Virus record (IMG/VR): IMGVR_UViG_2534682060_000010
Length of the DNA: 7,066 nt
Reading direction: 5' to 3' (one strand)
Source of the DNA: a virus
Taxonomy: Duplodnaviria > Heunggongvirae > Uroviricota > Caudoviricetes
Under the pieces are notes generated by a model, which was not told the origin of the DNA, did not search any database, and worked only from the letters and a program-made list of their open reading frames with translations. The position numbers and the translations under genes are program-made. This document shows, in pieces, positions 1 to 6,517 of this stretch; position 1 is the stretch's first letter; each line of letters starts with the position of its first letter.

Positions 1-79
1 GTAGCAGACCTGCAATCAGCCCAACACCTCCACCAGCCCATACATCAGGTGACCCCAGTTCAGGAGGGAGATTTACCAT
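1..79 (-). CDS. Possible 5' end of a minus-strand gene running off the left edge (visible N-terminus MVNLPPELGSPDVWAGGGVGLIAGLL)
   Basis: ATG at 79-77 on the minus strand, AAGGA Shine-Dalgarno (complement of 86-90) 6 nt upstream, frame open to position 1. Gly-rich hydrophobic N-terminus. First 80 nt are 43/80 G+C by my count, visibly richer than the rest. Plus-strand frame 1 is also open over 1-141, so the strand call is uncertain. Confidence 0.25.
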   Translation of the reverse strand, partial: MVNLPPELGSPDVWAGGGVGLIAGLL

Positions 80-262: not shown

Positions 263-292
263 ATTATATCACAGATGTTAATAAAATGTTAA
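263..292 (-). promoter_or_regulatory. Sigma70-like promoter on the minus strand, firing leftward
   Basis: On the minus strand: -35 TTAACA (complement of 287-292), 18-nt spacer, extended -10 TGaTATAAT (complement of 263-271). Back-to-back with the plus-strand promoter at 299. Confidence 0.45.
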
Positions 293-298
293 AAATAC

Positions 299-337
299 TT
301 GACATTAGTCTTTGAAAATGCTAGTATTGTATATATA
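299..337 (+). promoter_or_regulatory. Sigma70-like promoter P1 for the 185/92/66-aa operon
   Basis: -35 TTGACA 299-304, 17-nt spacer, -10 TAGTAT 322-327, immediately followed by TGTATATATA 328-337. Same architecture as the promoter at 2007. Confidence 0.55.
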
Positions 338-378
338 AGTTAACAGAATAATAACATCTTATGAGGGTCAGAACATGA

Positions 379-936
379 ATGAGAGACGCAGAATTTAGAG
401 CGATGCTTCAGGCATCGAGACAACGTAACAGATACAACTCCTACAGCTACACAGACACCCCCACCAGCTACGAATTACCCAAGCTCACCCAAAAAGAACG
501 CAAAGGCATTGACGAAGTAATTCGGGCAATTACACCGAGGAACCGTTACATGCCAACACGCAAAACAACAAAGAACAGCATCAGGAATTATCTGGCTAGC
601 TTTGACAGCTACGCGCAACTACCGAGCAAGCTTGATGATATTTTTATTGGATTTTGCAGAAGCGAGGGTCACCAGAAATACAATCAGAAGGTTTTTTATT
701 TACTGCGAAGTCTTGATGAAATTAACTCAGCCACCGTGACAAATCATCTTCAGCGTCAAGCAACCAGACTTAGCCATGAATTACCAAGCGATAAATATTG
801 CGCTTTGCTTGCTGTAATGTGCGCAAAGTTAATTGGTGTTGTTGAGCATCATATTGCCGCTGGAAATATTGAGACAATGGAAAACGAGCAACCAGATTTC
901 GAGTTTGACCCGTATTTAGTTACAGAGGAATTTTAA
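379..936 (+). CDS. Hypothetical protein, 185 aa, basic N-terminal region
   Basis: Long ORF in AT-rich DNA; GAGGG 364-368 upstream of ATG 379; in-frame TGA immediately upstream; stop TAA abuts the next start. No motif recognised. Confidence 0.8.
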   Translation: MRDAEFRAMLQASRQRNRYNSYSYTDTPTSYELPKLTQKERKGIDEVIRAITPRNRYMPTRKTTKNSIRNYLASFDSYAQLPSKLDDIFIGFCRSEGHQKYNQKVFYLLRSLDEINSATVTNHLQRQATRLSHELPSDKYCALLAVMCAKLIGVVEHHIAAGNIETMENEQPDFEFDPYLVTEEF

Positions 937-1215
937 ATGAAGAAACACACTTTGACCCGTATTTCAGAGGAAGCTTTTAACGAGCTTACCAGAATTAAAC
1001 GAGCTACTAACTTGCCTCATCAAACTGTTATGCAGCTTGCAATCTCTAAAGTGGTCACTGAGTCGGATTTACTTAGATATCCAGTCTCTAAAGGCCGCAA
1101 ACACATCCGAATTACTCAGGACGCTTTAGATACTTTGAAGGGACTAAACAACTTTAAAATTGATATTGCCCGTCTAATGAGTATCAAAATTCACAAATTA
1201 GCGATGGAGGTTTAA
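937..1215 (+). CDS. Putative ribbon-helix-helix DNA-binding protein with two RHH-like repeats, 92 aa
   Basis: Starts directly after the previous stop (TAA 934-936, ATG 937). Residues ~5-38 (TLTRISEEAFNELTRIKRATNLPHQTVMQLAISKV) and ~56-88 (HIRITQDALDTLKGLNNFKIDIARLMSIKIHKL) each follow a beta-strand/helix/helix pattern typical of Arc/CopG/MetJ-type folds. Assignment is by pattern only. Confidence 0.75.
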   Translation: MKKHTLTRISEEAFNELTRIKRATNLPHQTVMQLAISKVVTESDLLRYPVSKGRKHIRITQDALDTLKGLNNFKIDIARLMSIKIHKLAMEV

Positions 1216-1415
1216 TGCTATGCGTTACCTTTGAATACCACACGGATAAAATGATTCGCTACATCTCCGACCTCCTGATTGAAGGAAACGGATTCGGTGA
1301 CATCCATAACTCAAAAGATATCTTCATTCACGCCACCAGCCCAAGCGAAACATTAAAAACAGCAGTTACAACGGAATGGTTTGAACGAAATAAAGTAGAA
1401 TTAGGCTATTGGTAG
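1215..1415 (+). CDS. Hypothetical protein, 66 aa
   Basis: TAATG overlap with the upstream gene (stop 1213-1215, start 1215-1217); GGAGG 1206-1210. No motif recognised. Confidence 0.6.
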   Translation: MLCVTFEYHTDKMIRYISDLLIEGNGFGDIHNSKDIFIHATSPSETLKTAVTTEWFERNKVELGYW

Positions 1416-1451
1416 TCCGAGACTTTAAGAGAAATTAGAAAAACAGCTTCT

Positions 1452-1571
1452 CAGACGCTCTCAATCGCATTCTAACGCAAAAAACTATCTTATTTTAGGG
1501 TGGGAATACCACTGTACAGGCTACCCCTGAAAAAGACTATTTAGCTCGTTACAGAGCGATTGAGGAGGTCT
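1452..1571. repeat. Structured repeat, copy B: left arm 1452-1482, unique 56-nt core 1483-1538 (contains palindrome CTGTACAG), right arm 1539-1571
   Basis: Same arms, order and orientation as copy A; core unrelated in sequence and length. Lies between the 66-aa gene stop and the 107-aa gene ribosome-binding site. Confidence 0.8.
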
Positions 1572-1593
1572 GGTAAAAAGGAGATTTTAGGAA

Positions 1594-1917
1594 ATGAACA
1601 ACTTCCCATTACAAATTTTCGTTGATAACGACGCCGCTCTGATGATTCAGGCTTTCACTGATGCAGGTGTGGCAATTGATTTTGACAGGCTGTTAAAGCT
1701 AGTTGCTGAGAACTCAGAAGTAATTGAAGATTTTATTCAGGGAATTGAAACTGGTGAACCACGTTTTATGTTTCCCGTTACCGACTCAAACATGAAAAGG
1801 CTTGTTATCGAAGAAACGAATAAATACAGCATTAGCCCTGAAAAATATCTCAAGGCGGCTATAGTAATTTTGTATAGCGACAGTATTTTGGTGACGGATT
1901 CGAAGGTGGTGCATTAA
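1594..1917 (+). CDS. Hypothetical acidic protein, 107 aa
   Basis: AAAAAGGAG 1575-1583 precedes ATG 1594. By my count 17 Asp+Glu against 9 Lys+Arg. No motif recognised. Confidence 0.75.
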   Translation: MNNFPLQIFVDNDAALMIQAFTDAGVAIDFDRLLKLVAENSEVIEDFIQGIETGEPRFMFPVTDSNMKRLVIEETNKYSISPEKYLKAAIVILYSDSILVTDSKVVH

Positions 1918-1982
1918 TGGTATTGGTGATTATCTGTTTTGTATTGATTGGTATGATTGCAGGTGCATCTATTAAAGTATAA
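1917..1982 (+). CDS. Candidate micro-ORF encoding a 21-aa hydrophobic peptide (MVLVIICFVLIGMIAGASIKV), not in the supplied ORF track
   Basis: ATG overlaps the upstream stop (TAATG at 1915-1919); AAGGTGG 1902-1908 lies 8 nt upstream; peptide is almost entirely hydrophobic with one Lys near the C-terminus; stop TAA 1980-1982. Confidence 0.3.
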   Translation: MVLVIICFVLIGMIAGASIKV

Positions 1983-2006
1983 ATGTTACCAATCTGTTAA
2001 AAGCTG

Positions 2007-2046
2007 TTGACAAATAACCTTGAGCATGACATAATTGTATATATAT
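2007..2046 (+). promoter_or_regulatory. Sigma70-like promoter P2, paralogous to P1
   Basis: -35 TTGACA 2007-2012, 17-nt spacer, -10 CATAAT 2030-2035, followed by TGTATATATA 2036-2045. Confidence 0.6.
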
Positions 2047-2210
2047 GGAGAGCAATTCTCCTTGAATTAAACTATTAATCATCTCTACATCGATGATAAC
2101 TATATTCTGAATTGGAAAGTGCAATGCTTTTCGCTACATGACCTCTTATATAACTTGAGAGGTCATCTCGAAAAGTCTTTGTTCATTTGAATCCTTTAGA
2201 TGCTACCTTT

Positions 2211-2238
2211 GCCCTAATCATGAGTTAGGGCTTTCTTT
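2211..2238 (+). terminator. Intrinsic-terminator-like hairpin T1 inside the long leader
   Basis: Stem GCCCTAA (2211-2217) / TTAGGGC (2225-2231), 7-nt loop, then TTTCTTT (2232-2238). Confidence 0.45.
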
Positions 2239-2307
2239 AAGAGTTTTTAAACAGAGCTTTTAAAGAAAGTTTTCCTGAAACTTCGTTAACGTTATAAGCA
2301 AACCTCC

Positions 2308-2340
2308 AAAGCCCTTCACAGATTACGTTTAGGGCTTTTT
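2308..2340 (+). terminator. Weaker terminator-like hairpin T2, related to T1
   Basis: Stem AAAGCCCT (2308-2315) / AGGGCTTT (2331-2338), 15-nt loop, T-run 2336-2340. Shares the 3' half TTAGGGCTTT with T1. Confidence 0.3.
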
Positions 2341-2456
2341 CAATTCATAAAAGCACACTTGGCAAGTTCTTGTTCAGTCAGACTCTTCACCTCTGATTGC
2401 TGAGTGTGCTTCTACGAATTTGAAAATAAGCAATTACACTAAAGAGGTGAAAAATA

Positions 2457-3197
2457 ATGTCTATCCGTGATGAACATGAAGCGATTGTTGATAGAAAACC
2501 TTGTGCATATGATTTGCATTTTACTGATGAAGGAGATGAGTATGCACATATGAAACCTTATCACAAAATTATTGCCAAGCTTGCAGATGAAGAGGCCAAA
2601 AAAGAAAGGCTACGAAAGATTGTTCCAGCCAATAATCTTGAATTTATCAATCCTGAGCCTCTGGAAATGACTGATGTTTGCAAGACAGAAGCTCTGATTG
2701 CACTTGAGAGGAGGTACTATCCACTACTAAAAGAGCAGCGCATCAAGCTTGATAATGCTTATGATGTTGTCAAGAACTTCGAAGAAACTCAGAAACCTTC
2801 AGAATATGATATTGAATATGAGCTTAAGACAAACCCGTTTATCTATTACGAAGGAAATTACAACAATGGTTTCGGTACAGCAAGAGAGAATGTTCCAAAA
2901 GTGCTTCAAAGTATTCCTGACGGTTTTCGATTAATAGATGTCAGACAAGCTCCACGTGGCACAGGCTCATATATCCTGATGACTAACAAAACAGACGAAG
3001 AGATTATTCAGTTGGTTGAGGCTAATTTGACTAAGCATTACTCCGATAAGCTGGACAAGTTAAAGCAAAAGCTTAAAAAAGAGCTTGATACTATGAAAGA
3101 GCTTGTTAGTGAATATGAGTCGCAGAAGAAGGTTGCTATGCAGGGTGATATTGAGCAGCTTACTAAGATTTCTCAGAAATACAGCAAAGCACTTTGA
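2457..3197 (+). CDS. Hypothetical protein, 246 aa, charged and probably coiled-coil at the C-terminus
   Basis: AGAGGTGA 2442-2449 upstream of ATG 2457; long ORF. No Walker or catalytic motif seen. Confidence 0.85.
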   Translation: MSIRDEHEAIVDRKPCAYDLHFTDEGDEYAHMKPYHKIIAKLADEEAKKERLRKIVPANNLEFINPEPLEMTDVCKTEALIALERRYYPLLKEQRIKLDNAYDVVKNFEETQKPSEYDIEYELKTNPFIYYEGNYNNGFGTARENVPKVLQSIPDGFRLIDVRQAPRGTGSYILMTNKTDEEIIQLVEANLTKHYSDKLDKLKQKLKKELDTMKELVSEYESQKKVAMQGDIEQLTKISQKYSKAL

Positions 3198-3221: not shown

Positions 3222-3431
3222 ATGTTTGAAGAACGTTTAGAGACTATTCGGTCTGTTTGTGAAAACCTAAAGTTACAAACTAAACCAGCCTTAAGAATTA
3301 AAAACAAACGTCAAGTTATCACCTTACACAAACCAAAAACACGCAAGATTCCAAAGTGGTGCATTGACCGTATTCCTTCTGATGCTCAAATCATAGGTGA
3401 AACGGAATTACATTATCTTGTCAGGCATTAA
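3222..3431 (+). CDS. Hypothetical small basic protein, 69 aa
   Basis: GAGGTG 3213-3218 upstream of ATG 3222. By my count 15 Lys+Arg against 8 Asp+Glu. Same frame as the upstream gene but separated by three in-frame stops. Confidence 0.6.
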   Translation: MFEERLETIRSVCENLKLQTKPALRIKNKRQVITLHKPKTRKIPKWCIDRIPSDAQIIGETELHYLVRH

Positions 3432-3539: not shown

Positions 3540-5588
3540 ATGAGCAAATTTACAGTTGATAGTTTTATTGTTGAGCTAGGCTTCAATGAAAACGTTATTA
3601 AGGGACTGCAAAGAGTTGAAAAGGCAGCTTTGCAGTCAGCACAAAGAATTGAAAAGAACCTAAATAAAGGTTTCAGGATAAATACAAAACAGCTTGATAG
3701 TAATTTGACAAGTTCTTTAAAGTCAATGGAAGGAAAAATTAATAAGACCTTTGACCGTCTGGAAGCTAGAGCAAAAAATACTAAAGCTTTCCGTTTCACA
3801 AGTCAGGTTAATGATGCTATTAATCCTCCAAAACAATCAAAGCCAAGAAGAGTTACTAGTGACCGAGCTATTACAGCGGCTTATTCAGCGAATATGACCA
3901 AACTGAAAGGTCTTAACCCAATTGTCGAGAAATACATTAAGAGTCAGTTTTACGCATTAAGTAGTAAAGCTGGTCAGATGGATAACACCAAGTTTAATGA
4001 AGCCCTTGCTAAACTAAATTCAAGTGTACGAGAAGCAATCACTAAAGCCAGAGGTCATACATCCACCAGCATTAATAGTGACAAAGCAGCTAGTTCTCTT
4101 GATAGTCTGTCTTCAGCAGCATTTAGAGCAGCAGGTGCATTTATCAGCTTTCAGGCTGTACTATCCGCTTATCAGCGAGTACTGGAAGTTGGTTTACAGC
4201 GTACATCATCGGAAAGAAGTATTGATTTCGTATTCGGTGACCAAAGTACACAGGTTAAAAAGTTCATTCAGGATTTAACTCAAGTCACGGGTATGGACAC
4301 GACCGAAACACAAGCTCAGTTTGCCTCATTCGGTGCATCTGCAAAGAATACGATGGGTCTTGAAGGCTCAGAGGAATTATTTAAAAACTTAACTGGATAT
4401 GCCCGTCTAATGGGGCGTTCAGATGAGCAGATTCAAAGAGCATTAACCGCAGTATCGCAGATGGCTTCTAAGGGGCAGGTGATGTCTGAGGAGTTGAAGG
4501 GGCAATTATCTGAAGCTTTACCGGGTGCTACTCAGGCATTTGCAAAGGCTTTAGGTCTGACTGAAAAACAGCTTTTCGATAAGATGAAAAATGGTGATGT
4601 TAAAGCCTCTGATGCACTCCCTAAGTTTGCTAAAGAACTTGGTGCACAGATTAATTCAAGAGGTGGCTGGAAAGCTATTCAGGACTCTACGCAGACAATG
4701 TTAGGGAACTTAAAGAATACCTGGAATAACTCATTAACGGATATTTTCAAAGGTTCTGAAAATGGTCTGCAAGATTTTACACGAAGCTTAACAACGCTTT
4801 TAAATAGTTTAGATGGAAGTGGTAAAACATTAGGTGAAAGTCTTGGTGGCTTGATGAGTGATATGTCATATGGTATCGATAACCTGACTTATATTAGTTA
4901 CAGGGTGAGAGCGTTCTTTGATGAGGTGACATTAGCTTATCGTGGTTTAACCGATGAACAAAAGAAAGTTGTTGATGCTTTAGGTTCTGGCTTGATTAAT
5001 AGTTTAAAAGTCTTGGCTGGTGTTATTGCTGTAAATAAAGTTGTTGGTGTAACTAGAAGTATTTACGGGCTTATGACTGCTATCACAAGATTAGGTCAGG
5101 TCGCTGATACTACAGCAGATAACGTAAATAAAAAGAACGGGAAACCATCAAGGTTTAATCTTGGGAATATGCTATTAACTGGTAGTGCAATCTATGCAGG
5201 TTATGAGAGATTAGCTTCTACGCCTGAACGAATGGAAGCACAAGCTAAATTACCAGAGCTAGCTAAAGAGTCTGGACTTAAACCCGCTTTCACTATGGAT
5301 GATGTTAAAGGGTGGTTTAATAGTGCTGCCATGAATCTTGCTAACTTCCAGCATCCAGAATTAAACAACATTAAGCAAGATTCAGCATTAACGAGTGCAG
5401 ATATCCAAAGCCTGAGAGATGAAATCTCCGCTTTGAGTAAACGTATTCAGGAGCCTGTGAAAGTTTCACTTGGTGGTGAAGTTGCCATTAAACCAGATGA
5501 AACCAGCTTTATGACCTTTAGCGGTAATATCTACGACCAATACGCAGAAGCTACGCTATTAAGTTCATCATTCCCAGAAGATGATTGA
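3540..5588 (+). CDS. Phage tail tape-measure-like protein, 682 aa
   Basis: GAGGTG 3524-3529 upstream of ATG 3540. Internal segment KGQVMSEELKGQLSEALPGATQAFAKALGLTEKQLFDKMKNGDVKASDALPKFAKELG fits, from memory, the conserved tape-measure domain pattern. Long helical low-complexity N-terminal half and a hydrophobic segment LINSLKVLAGVIAVNKVVGV. Confidence is high that this is a gene, moderate for the product. Confidence 0.7.
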   Translation: MSKFTVDSFIVELGFNENVIKGLQRVEKAALQSAQRIEKNLNKGFRINTKQLDSNLTSSLKSMEGKINKTFDRLEARAKNTKAFRFTSQVNDAINPPKQSKPRRVTSDRAITAAYSANMTKLKGLNPIVEKYIKSQFYALSSKAGQMDNTKFNEALAKLNSSVREAITKARGHTSTSINSDKAASSLDSLSSAAFRAAGAFISFQAVLSAYQRVLEVGLQRTSSERSIDFVFGDQSTQVKKFIQDLTQVTGMDTTETQAQFASFGASAKNTMGLEGSEELFKNLTGYARLMGRSDEQIQRALTAVSQMASKGQVMSEELKGQLSEALPGATQAFAKALGLTEKQLFDKMKNGDVKASDALPKFAKELGAQINSRGGWKAIQDSTQTMLGNLKNTWNNSLTDIFKGSENGLQDFTRSLTTLLNSLDGSGKTLGESLGGLMSDMSYGIDNLTYISYRVRAFFDEVTLAYRGLTDEQKKVVDALGSGLINSLKVLAGVIAVNKVVGVTRSIYGLMTAITRLGQVADTTADNVNKKNGKPSRFNLGNMLLTGSAIYAGYERLASTPERMEAQAKLPELAKESGLKPAFTMDDVKGWFNSAAMNLANFQHPELNNIKQDSALTSADIQSLRDEISALSKRIQEPVKVSLGGEVAIKPDETSFMTFSGNIYDQYAEATLLSSSFPEDD

Positions 5589-5600
5589 TAATAGTCGAAT

Positions 5601-5657
5601 GCTACGTGAATAAAGCAAAGTTAATACCCACACTAAAAAATTATTTTTCACGTAGCT
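5601..5657. repeat. Perfect 10-bp inverted repeat GCTACGTGAA / TTCACGTAGC with a 37-nt spacer
   Basis: Arms at 5601-5610 and 5648-5657 are exact reverse complements; located in the AT-rich gap between the tape-measure gene and the next gene. Confidence 0.7.
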
Positions 5658-5746
5658 CACGCTTAATAGAGAAAACACTTATATATTAAAGGATTAGTTA
5701 AAAATAGTTAAAATACACTAAGCCTTTGAAATCAAAGGAGAATTTA

Positions 5747-6517
5747 ATGATTTACACTAATCAGCTTCGTTACAGTGGCAAAGATGGTGTTTACTTCCAT
5801 CTACAAGGCCAACCAGATAATTTCTTGTCACTATCAGCTACTGAGAACATGGAATTTGATAGCCCTATGATGGTTACCACTCAAAATATGCAATCAGGGC
5901 AGGCTGTCACAGATAATGTAATGCGTTCACCCAGAACAATTACTATTAGTGGTGTCGTTGTAGTTGGCTATGAAGGAAGCTTATTATTGACTCGTCAAGG
6001 GCAATTAGTAGAAAACTTCATTGATACTCTGGAAAGCTGGAGAGACCAGAAACAGATTATTTCGGTCATCTGTAAAGATGGTATCAAAATTGACGATTCC
6101 ATTATTACAAACTTTAAAGCCTCTAAAGATGTTGGAATTTCTAATGGCCTAAGAATCCAGCTAACTTTTCAGGAAATTAACTTTAAAGCTATCGTAGGGC
6201 AAACTGATATTTCATCTGCAACTGGAAAGACCGCTACCACGAATGATGGCGGTGCTACCAGTAAAAAGAACACCGGAAACACTACAACGAGCCTTGGAAG
6301 CCCTATGCTGACCTGTAAAGAGCTTTTTAGCTATTCGGCAAGTGAGTTATCAGATGAAGCGCTAAAAGCCCGTGTAACGTGCTCTAAGAGCGTTAGCGTT
6401 AAAAATGGTGAGAGCACCTTCTCAGATGCCGCTAATGAGCAAGCTTCAAAGGTGCTTAAGCCGGGTAATGCTCTGCGAAAGTACTCTGTGAACCCTAACA
6501 AGAAGGGCACTTATTGA
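5747..6517 (+). CDS. Hypothetical protein, ~256 aa; possibly a tail component by position
   Basis: AAAGGAG 5733-5739 sits 7 nt upstream of ATG 5747; the track's TTG start at 5726 lies upstream of the Shine-Dalgarno and is less likely. Placement right after a tape-measure gene suggests a distal tail protein, but I recognise no motif. Confidence 0.8.

Follow-up and report, generated by a model that had tools for sequence, protein, structure and literature searches.

Two related, probable promoters of a phage-satellite-like Escherichia coli island share a variable start region and conserved TGTTA repeats that match ArcA binding sites

Two sites in a viral DNA record of 7,066 nucleotides (IMG/VR record IMGVR_UViG_2534682060_000010; the whole stretch is called the window here) read TTGACA, exactly 17 nt, a -10-like hexamer and then the identical 10-mer TGTATATATA. 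Is this 10-mer a regulatory element that ties together the genes behind the two promoters, P1 and P2? The original prediction had offered an operator over the transcription start, an extended discriminator or a phage-specific promoter element, and had concluded that both gene sets are co-regulated. The arrangement itself is exact on direct reading, with both copies on the plus strand (Table 1). We read TGTATATATA as the discriminator plus the first transcribed bases, i.e. as a variable start region and not a dedicated operator. The conserved cis-element shared by P1 and P2 is, according to our alignments and matrix scores, another one: a TGTTA-N6-TGTTA box that matches the binding site of ArcA.

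Table 1. Features of the window, with positions counted from its first letter.
Feature	Position	Strand	Details	Basis
P_L, divergent promoter	263-292	-	-35 TTAACA 292-287; 18-nt spacer; TGaTATAAT; -10 268-263	promoter scan
ArcA-type box 5' of P1	275-292	+	direct repeats ATGTTAATAA 275-284 and ATGTTAAAAA 286-295, 11-bp spacing	24.9 bits
P1 core	299-327	+	-35 TTGACA 299-304; 17-nt spacer 305-321; TGc 319-321; -10 TAGTAT 322-327	direct reading, promoter scan
10-mer TGTATATATA at P1	328-337	+	discriminator plus start region; predicted +1 A335 inside conserved TAT	
ArcA-type box in P1 leader	340-357	-	inverted, ATGTTATTATTCTGTTAA; about +6 to +23	17.9 bits
Genes after P1	379-936; 937-1215; 1215-1415; 1594-1917	+	185 aa; 92 aa; 66 aa; 107 aa	ORF list
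ArcA-type box 5' of P2	1983-2000	+	ATGTTACCAATCTGTTAA	18.2 bits
P2 core	2007-2035	+	-35 TTGACA 2007-2012; 17-nt spacer 2013-2029; TGa 2027-2029; -10 CATAAT 2030-2035	direct reading, promoter scan
10-mer TGTATATATA at P2	2036-2045	+	discriminator plus start region; predicted +1 A2043	
Hairpin at P2 transcript 5' end	2047-2061	+	GGAGA-GCAAT-TCTCC	-6.2 kcal/mol
Structured P2 leader	2062-2456	+	conserved block GAAAGGTGCAATGCTTTTCG at about 2114-2133; large hairpin 2126-2176	
Terminator-like hairpins in P2 leader	2211-2231; 2308-2338	+	first followed by TTTCTTT; second ending in TTTTT	folding
Further P2 leader hairpin	2351-2411	+		folding
Genes after P2 leader	2457-3197; 3222-3431	+	246 aa; 69 aa	ORF list
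Structural genes after P2 leader	3540-5588; 5747-6517	+	tape measure, 682 aa; Dit-like baseplate	ORF list, homology
TTATATATT	5679-5687	+	not a promoter of P1/P2 architecture	

The window is a whole E. coli contig and forms part of a chromosomal island of about 11.5 kb, which has yciI on one side and tonB on the other, encodes a serine integrase/recombinase of 506 aa and has relatives in about 9% of complete E. coli genomes. Gene calls downstream of P1 are identical in the complete chromosome. The only structural genes of the island are a tape-measure gene and a Dit-like baseplate gene, both of the Felix O1 type: DNA identity of the Dit-like gene is 85-90% to Felixounavirus phages and 86% to Felix O1 ORF68, the tape measure protein shares about 32% protein identity with its Felix O1-type counterpart, and the order of the two genes matches ORF67-ORF68. 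Outside these two genes no homology to Felix O1 was found in the island's non-coding region and leader, and the promoter-region DNA has no similarity to any sequenced phage. The island resembles a phage satellite in being integrative, in having a recombinase of its own, in lacking the majority of virion genes and in carrying homologues of genes of a presumed helper phage. Proteins encoded downstream of P1 belong to no significant Pfam, PHROG, NCBIfam or PADLOC family, and searches with the island's unknown proteins (Pfam, PHROGs, NCBIfam, PADLOC, PDB sequence search) gave nothing usable apart from two weak matches. The 185-aa protein has a weak Ltp-like match; the 92-aa protein has an N-terminus that looks ribbon-helix-helix (RHH)-like by eye and a weak DndE match (E=0.005, far below the NCBIfam cut-off). 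Some related islands carry an alternative early module, with an HTH_36 protein as its only domain match. A species-level scan of genomes for the 107-aa protein gave only three further loci (Escherichia sp., Citrobacter sp. and E. albertii).

The putative E. coli phage satellites treated in section 24 of Barth et al. (PMC10055350) and the Vibrio PLEs are likewise small and integrative with an incomplete set of virion genes; further likenesses are a tape measure together with a baseplate component, a serine recombinase in some of them, modular early/replication regions and HNH endonuclease genes at module borders. According to that section, the E. coli set was found via Inny, Muut and Mt1B1_P17 phages and encodes capsid, decoration proteins and RepA_N, whereas the phage genes that match our island are Felixounavirus ORF67 and ORF68, and no Pfam domain of a capsid protein, decoration protein or RepA_N was detected in the window proteins. 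The same section contains nothing on promoters of the P1/P2 type. Literature searches on satellites of Felixounavirus and on the repeat region of Felix O1 returned nothing specific.

Are P1 and P2 promoters at all? A generic promoter scan placed both among its best four matches, each with a TG preceding the -10, and P2 came out on top (11/12 plus TG). Both have the anatomy of sigma-70 extended -10 promoters, i.e. a TTGACA-like -35, a spacer within 16-18 bp, a -10 with A2 and T6, and TGn. Conservation was assessed in 14 distinct P1 and 21 distinct P2 orthologs chosen without regard to the 10-mer. The -35 is invariant throughout (identity 1.00), spacer identity is 0.97 at P1 and 0.94 at P2, -10 identity is 0.94 and 0.92, respectively, and the TGn is invariant at P1 and invariant or nearly so across orthologs. 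Moreover, each promoter lies upstream of co-oriented genes, and both are kept as units in dozens of related islands. Judged by this architecture and conservation, P1 and P2 are very probably real, strong sigma-70 bacterial promoters of a phage-satellite-like island, and transcription would probably start at the A of the conserved TAT within the 10-mer.

The sequence around the two cores had been described as otherwise unrelated, which is wrong. Compared in register from -60 to +4, P1 and P2 are identical at 43 of 63 positions, including two TGTTA repeats 5' of the -35, the TGn and cTTGA..ATG in the spacer. This degree of likeness would also suit a duplication or gene conversion between paralogous promoter modules, the identical 10-mer being a relic without function even in initiation, and promoter plus leader do behave like a module that is mobile and sharply bounded at 1983 (matches H85, H86 and H90). 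Yet the -10 hexamers differ at three of six positions right beside a 10-mer that is identical at 10 of 10, and a T/TAT sub-pattern is retained in most versions of the 10-mer, which points to a start region under selection and not to neutral descent; a mere relic is therefore highly improbable.

How unusual is the 10-mer? With up to one mismatch, TGTATATATA occurs in the window at the two promoter sites only, but 0.64 matches are expected and 27 of 200 shuffles contained at least two, so that the 10-mer alone is unremarkable. The composite TTGACA-N23-TGTATATATA (up to three mismatches) does exceed random frequency, with two matches against 0.10 expected and two of 200 shuffles reaching that number. 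Among the orthologs the 10-mer is the least conserved segment of the core (mean identity 0.91 at P1 and 0.76 at P2). Five of its ten columns are invariant at P1 (T1, G2, T3, T7, A8) and two at P2 (T3, A4), and the exact sequence is found in 6 of the 14 P1 and 5 of the 21 P2 variants. P2 has three alternative versions in the family (A, B and C), namely TGTATATAT[A/G], TTTAATTAT[A/G] and GGTAATAGGG; the identity seen in the window isolate probably represents the common ancestral state of a fast-changing segment. The 10-mer is better kept than the adjoining downstream sequence (0.91 vs 0.77 at P1, 0.76 vs 0.59 at P2), and the variant promoter of the alternative early module shows TGTAGTATGA after its -10; there is therefore some sequence preference beyond a mere A/T-rich stretch.

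A start-site operator, bound by an island or host protein that co-regulates both operons, could explain why both copies in the window isolate have the same sequence and the same fixed register and why the P1 copy is fairly well kept. It would also agree with the self-complementarity of TATATATA, with the small RHH-looking protein encoded in the P1 operon and with TGTAGTATGA at the same place in the variant promoter. The family comparison makes such an operator improbable all the same. The three P2 versions look unrelated to each other, and P1 and P2 versions do not co-vary inside one element but differ within single elements (relative L015 carries TGTATATATA and TTTAATTATA). The P2 version is not associated with the variant of the 92-aa protein either, A and B occurring with both protein variants and C with one of them, and A, B or C are also present in islands with an entirely different early module. 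An operator should be kept above its surroundings and match between the promoters of one element, and the 10-mer does not behave in this way; nor does it co-vary with a cognate DNA-binding protein encoded by the element. The composite motif, which had been proposed as a query for a regulon, was scanned against 2.9 million IMG/VR viral contigs and found in 99 stretches. Among the 80 stretches listed, there is no enrichment outside the island family: four loci are relatives of the island by BLAST (L012, L015, L023 and L024), L024 has two matches, and all other stretches have one each. The 10-mer as a regulon signal was rejected on this count.

Recurrence upstream of helper genes, as for a promoter element specific to the helper phage, was not found in Felix O1, which is the type phage of the genus from which the tail genes of the island come and the only phage scanned. 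No Felix O1 promoter carries the 10-mer, which occurs there once (up to one mismatch) within the sheath gene; TATATATA is absent from the genome, against about six per strand expected from base composition, while TATAAATA, a T4-type late element, occurs three times. The idea of a phage-specific promoter element was dropped accordingly. The looser third copy, TTATATATT, is present upstream of the Dit-like gene, but it lacks an acceptable -35 at 16-18 nt and is not among the sites given by the promoter scan; nearby there is only a weak GTTA repeat (5695-5712, 11.3 bits). We also scored the 10-mer as a degenerate extra ArcA repeat and discarded this candidate (-10 and -14 bits in context). The flagged 10-mer is thus an ordinary part of a promoter and does not establish a new regulatory motif.

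Conservation points to the sequence 5' of the -35 instead. Both promoters have TGTTA-N6-TGTTA at about -60 to -43 from the predicted start, in the same register to the -35 (core starts at 276 and 287 for P1, at 1984 and 1995 for P2), and P1 has a further box on the minus strand of its leader. The ArcA consensus is ATGTTAAAAA-N-ATGTTAAAAA, with a TGTTA core and 11 bp from centre to centre. We rebuilt an ArcA matrix from 115 of the 128 published ChIP-defined boxes (Table S3, PMC3798270), which span 9-21 bits; the published cut-offs are 10 or 15 bits. The P1 upstream box scores higher than the best training box (21.5 bits) and higher than the maximum over 1000 dinucleotide shuffles (22.1 bits). 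The three boxes are the top three matches in the window, all at or above 17.9 bits, where 0.044 are expected and none of the 1000 shuffles had three. Throughout a 22-kb chromosomal locus the island boxes alone exceed 15 bits; the ompW site, a member of the training set, was recovered there at 14.5 bits, and the footprinted site of plasmid R1 PY, which lies outside the training set, reaches 22.1 bits. All three boxes combine at least two TGTTA direct repeats at 11-bp spacing with scores within or above the ChIP-defined range.

The boxes are also conserved. TGTTA cores are invariant at P1 (14 orthologs) and P2, while the bases between the cores vary. Both P1 boxes are kept in all 11 P1-bearing relatives scanned (E. 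coli, Citrobacter), the inverted leader box at 16.4-18.1 bits and with a varying spacer between its cores. For P2, 15 relatives were scanned, the P1-bearing ones together with Escherichia sp. and E. albertii, and the upstream box reaches 17.7-20.7 bits in 14 of them. The exception is L127, where no repeat pair but the -35-proximal one came up to the 14-bit threshold (14.1 bits). Most relatives have a third repeat at P2, cTGTTGAca, 11 bp further on and overlapping the -35. Second and third repeat together score 10.1 bits in most relatives and 1.3 bits in the window with its 10-bp spacing; that P2 of the window has no in-phase third repeat counts against the ArcA explanation. In islands with the alternative early module the variant promoter has four tandem repeats running from the -35 through the -10. 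Finally, the divergent promoter P_L (11/12 plus TG in the scan) has its -35 and spacer inside the P1 upstream box, and its TTAACA-18-TGnTATAAT is retained in 15 of 15 P1-bearing relatives. That ArcA is the protein at the boxes, and in which direction it would regulate, we infer from these matches and from the box positions.

Alternatively, the repeats could be genuine regulatory sites bound by a helper-phage or island protein instead of ArcA, and the promoters would then respond directly to infection. Felix O1 has 32 TGTTA cores in 1.1 kb of non-coding DNA, compared to 3.5 per kb genome-wide, often 10-11 bp apart; conservation of this region extends over 236 Ounavirinae records, and it is located within or beside annotated terminal repeats. 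TGTTAAG units occur in the island's own non-coding region as well, and tail genes are common to the island and Felix O1-type phages. Nevertheless we regard such a ligand as rather unlikely. On the full 18-bp ArcA matrix the P1 upstream box beats every chromosomal training site, and the promoter boxes are similar to an ArcA-P site footprinted on a different mobile element. On the 3' side they are flanked by A/T-rich sequence, as ArcA repeats are, whereas about 15 of the 32 phage units read TGTTAAG and 9 read TGTTAG. No candidate phage or island protein was identified, and the repeats stay constant while the early modules differ between islands.

Does a common box mean that both gene sets are co-expressed? 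A shared regulator of P1 and P2 is plausible, which leaves part of the co-regulation claim standing, but the leader that follows P2 is conserved and contains intrinsic terminators, so that expression of one operon does not simply go with expression of the other. This leader is present in 29 of 29 relatives with a length of 330-480 nt; its stems change sequence while pairing is retained, and folding z-scores range from -2.2 to -5.0. The consensus of the hairpin at the 5' end has six pairs, two of which show compensatory changes, and hardly any pair is broken across 18 relatives. The hairpin at 2211-2231 was also returned by the terminator scan. An Rfam search with leader and repeats gave no match near the gathering score. 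P2 transcripts would have to cross at least two intrinsic terminators, and the downstream genes would therefore need a further read-through signal.

A conserved leader with terminators in front of structural genes is the layout of an antitermination-dependent late promoter, and TATATA after the -10 might accordingly be a second -10-like element at which sigma-70 pauses and a Q-like antiterminator is loaded. Pause elements of lambdoid late promoters lie in the transcribed +1 to +10 region, whereas TATATA would sit at about -3 to +3. P1 shares the 10-mer but has a leader of about 40 nt without terminators, P2 versions B and C lose the -10-like hexamer and keep leader and terminators, and the island proteins showed no domain of a Q-family or any other antiterminator. 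Lambdoid PR' (with qut and tR') resembles P2 as a strong, constitutive-looking promoter followed by terminators before the structural genes. It differs in that the island has the downstream terminators of a Q-dependent late promoter but no Q homologue was found, and the putative pause element is not conserved and is common to the terminator-free P1. We give the pause scenario hardly any credence.

Taken together, we consider it fairly probable that P1 and P2 are related strong sigma-70 promoters in which the 10-mer is the start region and the TGTTA boxes are high-affinity sites of the ArcA-P type that hold the promoters down. The shared plan would consist of a TGTTA pair 11 bp apart, a consensus -35, a 17-bp spacer, a TGn extended -10 and an A/T-rich stretch for opening and start. 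At P1 the upstream box would cover the -35 and spacer of P_L, with the second, inverted box downstream of the start; at P2 the upstream box would be joined in most relatives by the third repeat over the -35. These positions suggest that a bound protein keeps otherwise very strong promoters down, by occlusion, by competition with the alpha subunit of RNA polymerase or by bracketing the promoter. The 246-aa, 69-aa, tape-measure and baseplate genes would be reached only past the small hairpin and at least two intrinsic terminators. ArcA sites 5' of a -35 can activate, as at R1 PY, and the sign of regulation may therefore be either.

A bolder extension is that ArcA-P, bound to consensus-strength TGTTA boxes at every strong promoter, silences a Felix O1-type satellite until the TGTTA array in the terminal non-coding region of the helper (about 30 copies) titrates ArcA-P as the phage genome replicates, or until a helper protein competes for the sites. 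We think this very improbable; if true, it would be an induction by repressor titration through phage DNA without any anti-repressor protein. The favoured reading, ArcA-P-type sites at strong promoters, would have consequences of its own. In a widespread, uncharacterised island family all strong promoters appear to be wired to TGTTA repeats which cannot be told apart from top-affinity ArcA sites. Should ArcA bind these repeats, the island would be, as far as known, the first phage-satellite-like element reported with gene expression tied to the oxygen/redox state of its host, the closest parallel that we found being ArcA control of the transfer genes of F-like plasmids, and the link could contribute to understanding when, in the gut, these islands are active and when they are silent.

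In sequence, spacing and number of repeats (two to four in the island) the boxes are like those of ArcA-P promoters of E. coli, and, as at repressed chromosomal targets, repeats overlap core elements in the variant promoter and in P_L. Unlike these, the island's putative ArcA sites are horizontally acquired, and their scores lie at the upper end of the chromosomal range or beyond it; at icdA, strengthening the repeats toward consensus made repression largely oxygen-independent. P1 further differs from known ArcA promoters by two boxes in inverted orientation that bracket the promoter, an arrangement for which a limited ArcA literature gave no description. PY of the tra operon on plasmid R1 and F-like plasmids is similar in that a mobile element has an extended -10 promoter with a footprinted ArcA-P site, TGTTAAGTAAATGTTAA, 5' of the -35, and TGTTAATAAAATGTTAA of P1 is identical to it at 15 of 17 positions. 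The PY box, however, lies at -76 to -60 and acts with TraJ to displace H-NS, which results in activation, whereas the island boxes abut a consensus -35 and are accompanied by extra boxes over or after the core, a combination that favours repression. The A-tract of the TGTTA repeat pair also resembles a proximal UP subsite.

By sequence, the conserved cis-element common to the promoters P1 and P2 is a direct-repeat box of the ArcA type, ArcA being the oxygen-response regulator of the E. coli host; it is not the 10-mer TGTATATATA on which the original prediction had focused. The predicted architecture of TTGACA, 17 nt, a -10-like hexamer and TGTATATATA is exact at both sites on re-reading of the sequence (see table). 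The 10-mer by itself is statistically unremarkable (two matches in the window against 0.64 expected, at least two being reached by 27 of 200 shuffles), and the composite motif is striking (two against 0.10 expected, two being reached in 2 of 200 shuffles). Both sites fall within the top four of a generic sigma-70 scan, a TG precedes each -10, and the promoter reading of P1 and P2 is supported by sequence and conservation. The flanks are not unrelated, contrary to what had been claimed: in register from -60 to +4, 43 of 63 positions are identical, including two TGTTA repeats 5' of the -35. The looser third site, TTATATATT at 5679-5687, is present but has no -35 at a usable distance, was not picked up by the promoter scan, and has only a weak GTTA repeat (11.3 bits on the ArcA matrix) close by.

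Promoters, repeat pairs and leader features of the window
Feature	Position	Strand	Sequence or remark	Basis
P_L	292-263	-	-35 TTAACA 292-287, 18 nt, TGaTATAAT with -10 at 268-263	promoter scan
P1 repeat pair	275-295	+	ATGTTAATAA-A-ATGTTAAAAA	
P1	299-337	+	TTGACA 299-304, 17 nt, TAGTAT 322-327, TGTATATATA 328-337	direct read
P2 repeat pair	1983-2003	+	ATGTTACCAA-T-CTGTTAAAAG	
P2	2007-2045	+	TTGACA 2007-2012, 17 nt, CATAAT 2030-2035, TGTATATATA 2036-2045	direct read
5' hairpin of P2 transcript	2047-2061	+	kept with compensatory changes	
Conserved leader block	2114-2133	+	GAAAGGTGCAATGCTTTTCG, almost invariant in 29 relatives	
Terminator-like hairpin 1	2211-2231	+	followed by UUUCUUU	
Terminator-like hairpin 2	2308-2338	+	ends in UUUUU, in nearly all relatives	
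Long hairpin of P2 leader	2351-2411	+		

Orthologous promoters were collected from IMG/VR contigs, from three further species or strains via the 107-aa protein, and from twelve E. coli chromosomes picked to span the identity range; conservation was calculated on the subset not chosen through the 10-mer, which comprises 14 different P1 and 21 different P2 sequences. At P1 and P2, respectively, the mean identity to consensus is 1.00 and 1.00 for the -35 hexamer, 0.97 and 0.94 for the spacer, 0.94 and 0.92 for the -10 hexamer, and 0.91 and 0.76 for the 10-mer, which has 5 of 10 invariant columns at P1 and 2 of 10 at P2 and reads exactly TGTATATATA in 6/14 and 5/21 sequences. At P2 it occurs in three versions (A, B and C) among orthologs, namely TGTATATAT[A/G], TTTAATTAT[A/G] (also TTTAAGTATG), and GGTAATAGGG, the latter behind a GATGAT -10, and versions are mixed within single elements (the relative L015 has TGTATATATA at P1 and TTTAATTATA at P2). 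Among the relatives compared, no association was found between P2 version and either the variant of the 92-aa protein, the sole small island protein resembling a DNA binder, or the type of early module. A role as operator was rejected on these grounds. The suggested phage-specific promoter element fares no better: the Felix O1 genome contains zero TATATATA, its single near-match to the 10-mer lies within the sheath gene, and its own TTGACA promoters have an upstream element of TTTTAAAAA type. Nor did a regulon emerge when the composite motif was sought across 2.9 million viral contigs. This search returned 99 stretches; among the 80 listed, four are relatives of the window's island, and two matches were found in one of these (L024) against one each in all others. 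Constant across most versions of the 10-mer are T at position 3 and TAT at positions 7-9. Start-site selection in E. coli generally follows the rule of a pyrimidine at -1 and a purine at +1, and since the constant bases fit this rule about 8 nt past the -10, +1 is probably A335 at P1 and A2043 at P2. The 10-mer is best explained as discriminator and start region rather than as a regulatory motif.

At P1 and P2 alike, the two direct repeats lie 11 bp apart and in the same register 5' of the -35. Among island relatives the TGTTA cores are invariant and the intervening bases vary (taaaa, cgaaat, ccaatc, tcagat, tcgggt), a combination that has the pattern of a protein footprint. The published minimal site for phosphorylated ArcA (ArcA-P) is ATGTTAAAAA-N-ATGTTAAAAA, with 11-bp spacing and a TGTTA core. 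An 18-bp ArcA matrix was rebuilt from the ArcA boxes defined by ChIP in PMC3798270 (Table S3), using 115 of the 128. In the window it scores highest at 275-292, where 24.9 bits exceed the 21.5 bits of the best training box; next come 1983-2000 with 18.2 bits and, on the minus strand, 340-357 with 17.9 bits. Across 1000 dinucleotide-preserving shuffles, hits of at least 17.9 bits averaged 0.044 per shuffle, three such hits occurred in none, and the top score was 22.1 bits. Within the 22-kb chromosomal locus no hit other than the three island boxes exceeds 15 bits; the established ArcA site of ompW, a member of the training set, ranks next at 14.5 bits. The DNase-footprinted ArcA-P site of plasmid R1 PY, TGTTAAGTAAATGTTAA, which is outside the training set, scores 22.1 bits and is identical to the P1 box at 15 of 17 positions. 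Both P1 boxes, upstream and downstream, are retained in 11/11 P1-bearing relatives scanned, a Citrobacter among them, and the upstream P2 box in 14/15 relatives scanned, including an E. albertii; the exception, L127, passes the threshold with its -35-proximal pair alone, at 14.1 bits.

Felix O1 itself has a non-coding array at 12.75-13.85 kb that packs 32 TGTTA cores, often at 10-11-bp spacing, into 1.1 kb, and in which four windows score 17.7-22.7 bits on the ArcA matrix. The region is conserved in 236 Ounavirinae records, in some of them within or adjoining the annotated terminal repeats, and no description of the array was found in the literature searched. Either a phage protein recognises TGTTA-like repeats and could act on the island promoters as well, or these phages likewise attract ArcA. 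The island boxes have A/T-rich, ArcA-like 3' flanks, whereas TGTTAAG and TGTTAG together make up about three-quarters of the phage units, which is a weak discriminator in favor of the ArcA reading.

The placement of the ArcA-type boxes bears on the sign of regulation. The upstream P1 box overlaps the -35 and spacer of the divergent promoter P_L, whose TTAACA-18-TGnTATAAT is kept in 15/15 P1-bearing relatives. The second P1 box is inverted and covers approximately +6 to +23, so that the P1 core is bracketed. At P2 most relatives have a third repeat, cTGTTGAca, in phase across the -35; its distance in the window is 10 bp instead of 11 bp. Some islands carry a different early module, encoding an HTH_36 protein, and its promoter has four tandem repeats (ATGTAAATGAG-ATGTTGACAAT-ATGTTAAATAA-ATGTTAAGAT) that contain the -35 and reach into the -10, followed by TGTAGTATGA. 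The same overlap of repeats with the promoter core is found at ArcA-repressed chromosomal promoters, and ArcA sites altered toward consensus cause repression even in air. By this analogy, repression of the island promoters is favoured, although they may instead be activated via counter-silencing, as at R1 PY.

P2 is separated from the first large gene by 330-480 nt in all 29 relatives, and its predicted transcript would begin about four bases ahead of the 5' hairpin. Next to GAAAGGTGCAATGCTTTTCG lies a large hairpin. The block is near-constant among the 29 relatives whereas the stem of this hairpin changes in sequence while its pairing stays, and GAAAGGTGCAATGCTTTTCG is a candidate recognition site for a factor permitting read-through of the leader terminators. 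Given the terminator-like hairpins, read-through is probably required to express the 246-aa, 69-aa, tape-measure and baseplate genes. The TATATA bases are unlikely to be a lambda-Q-type pause element: P1 has the same bases without terminators, versions B and C of P2 lack them, and domain searches of the island proteins revealed nothing Q-like. Co-regulation of the P1 and P2 gene sets had been proposed; a repressor shared by both promoters may exist, but the terminator-like hairpins of the P2 leader mean that the two sets are not simply co-expressed.

The window is the entire 7,066-bp contig AGIA01000101.1, and the same sequence is found in complete chromosomes (e.g. CP088890) between yciI and tonB, as part of an island of about 11.5 kb (approximately 3000-14600 of the chromosomal locus L100). 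The island's gene order starts with a 221-aa gene and a small serine recombinase, followed by repeat-rich non-coding DNA of about 1.9 kb; next come the genes encoding proteins of 185, 92, 66, 107, 246 and 69 aa, then those of the tape measure protein (682 aa) and a Dit-like baseplate protein, and last, on the opposite strand, that of a large serine recombinase of 506 aa. The Dit-like gene shares 85-90% DNA identity with Felixounavirus phages; the tape measure protein is about 32% identical to its Felix O1-type homologue, with 84% DNA identity over the first 76 nt of the gene. Their Felix O1 homologues, ORF67 and ORF68, are adjacent and in the same order, and the rest of the island bears no resemblance to Felix O1. 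The small island proteins have no family match in Pfam, PHROGs, NCBIfam or PADLOC. Of 5,426 complete E. coli genomes, 511 contain relatives of the first 2.46 kb; every copy is chromosomal, and a genome has at most three. The element therefore looks like a phage satellite or a tail-gene-bearing, possibly tail-interfering, island of Felix O1-type phages, and it appears to be of an undescribed type. The closest published description found (PMC10055350) is of putative E. coli satellites with tape-measure and baseplate proteins, which differ in also carrying capsid genes and RepA_N and in matching other phages.

Several neighbouring features deserve mention. P_L leads via a structured region of about 180 nt to a 62-aa ORF (1-79, minus strand, starting at 79 and exiting the window's left end) with a good ribosome-binding site and one hydrophobic segment, annotated by RefSeq in several relatives. 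Two copies of an element, at 95-190 and 1453-1575, have conserved arms (GACGCTCTCAATCGCAT ... GTTACAGAGCGATTGA(A/G)GAGGTC) that pair as a long hairpin round a variable interior; the second folds at -42 kcal/mol (z = -5). Both copies are present, as direct repeats flanking the P1 operon, in 6/18 loci scanned (7/18 if the divergent 5' arm of the second copy in L110 is accepted), and islands that carry the alternative early module lack the element. RNA structure, recombination site and module boundary are possibilities. Outside the window, the non-coding region of the island has two iteron-like direct repeats of about 60 bp, 90 nt apart (L100 6050-6200; GTTA(T/A)CTGTGAAG...TATATAT.GG...ATTACAACTTATTGAAAA), and the small recombinase gene is preceded by four CTATGCA repeats (L100 3820-4030); both could be origin or recombination sites. 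A hydrophobic 21-codon ORF (MVLVIICFVLIGMIAGASIKV, 1917-1982) overlaps the stop codon of the 107-aa gene (TAATG) and stops one base short of the P2 repeat box.

Residues 40-80 of the 185-aa protein (379-936) weakly match PDB 4eqq (E = 9e-4), deposited as 'putative host cell surface-exposed lipoprotein'. We take this entry to be the superinfection-exclusion protein Ltp, targeting a phage tape measure protein. In many relatives (L128-L137) the early operon includes a small HNH endonuclease gene, between the 92-, 66- and 107-aa genes, in varying position and sometimes truncated; the window's island is without one, and the pattern is consistent with homing-endonuclease traffic at module borders. 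Some 246-aa homologues (L128, L133, L134, L136; window 2457-3197) are named 'transposase' in RefSeq, a label that looks unfounded, as no transposase domain was found in Pfam for the window's protein or the L128 homologue, nor in NCBIfam for the window's. Between the tape-measure and Dit-like genes, whose homologues in Felix O1 directly adjoin each other, lies a 158-nt spacer (5589-5746) that shows about 80% conservation among relatives over its first 81 nt.
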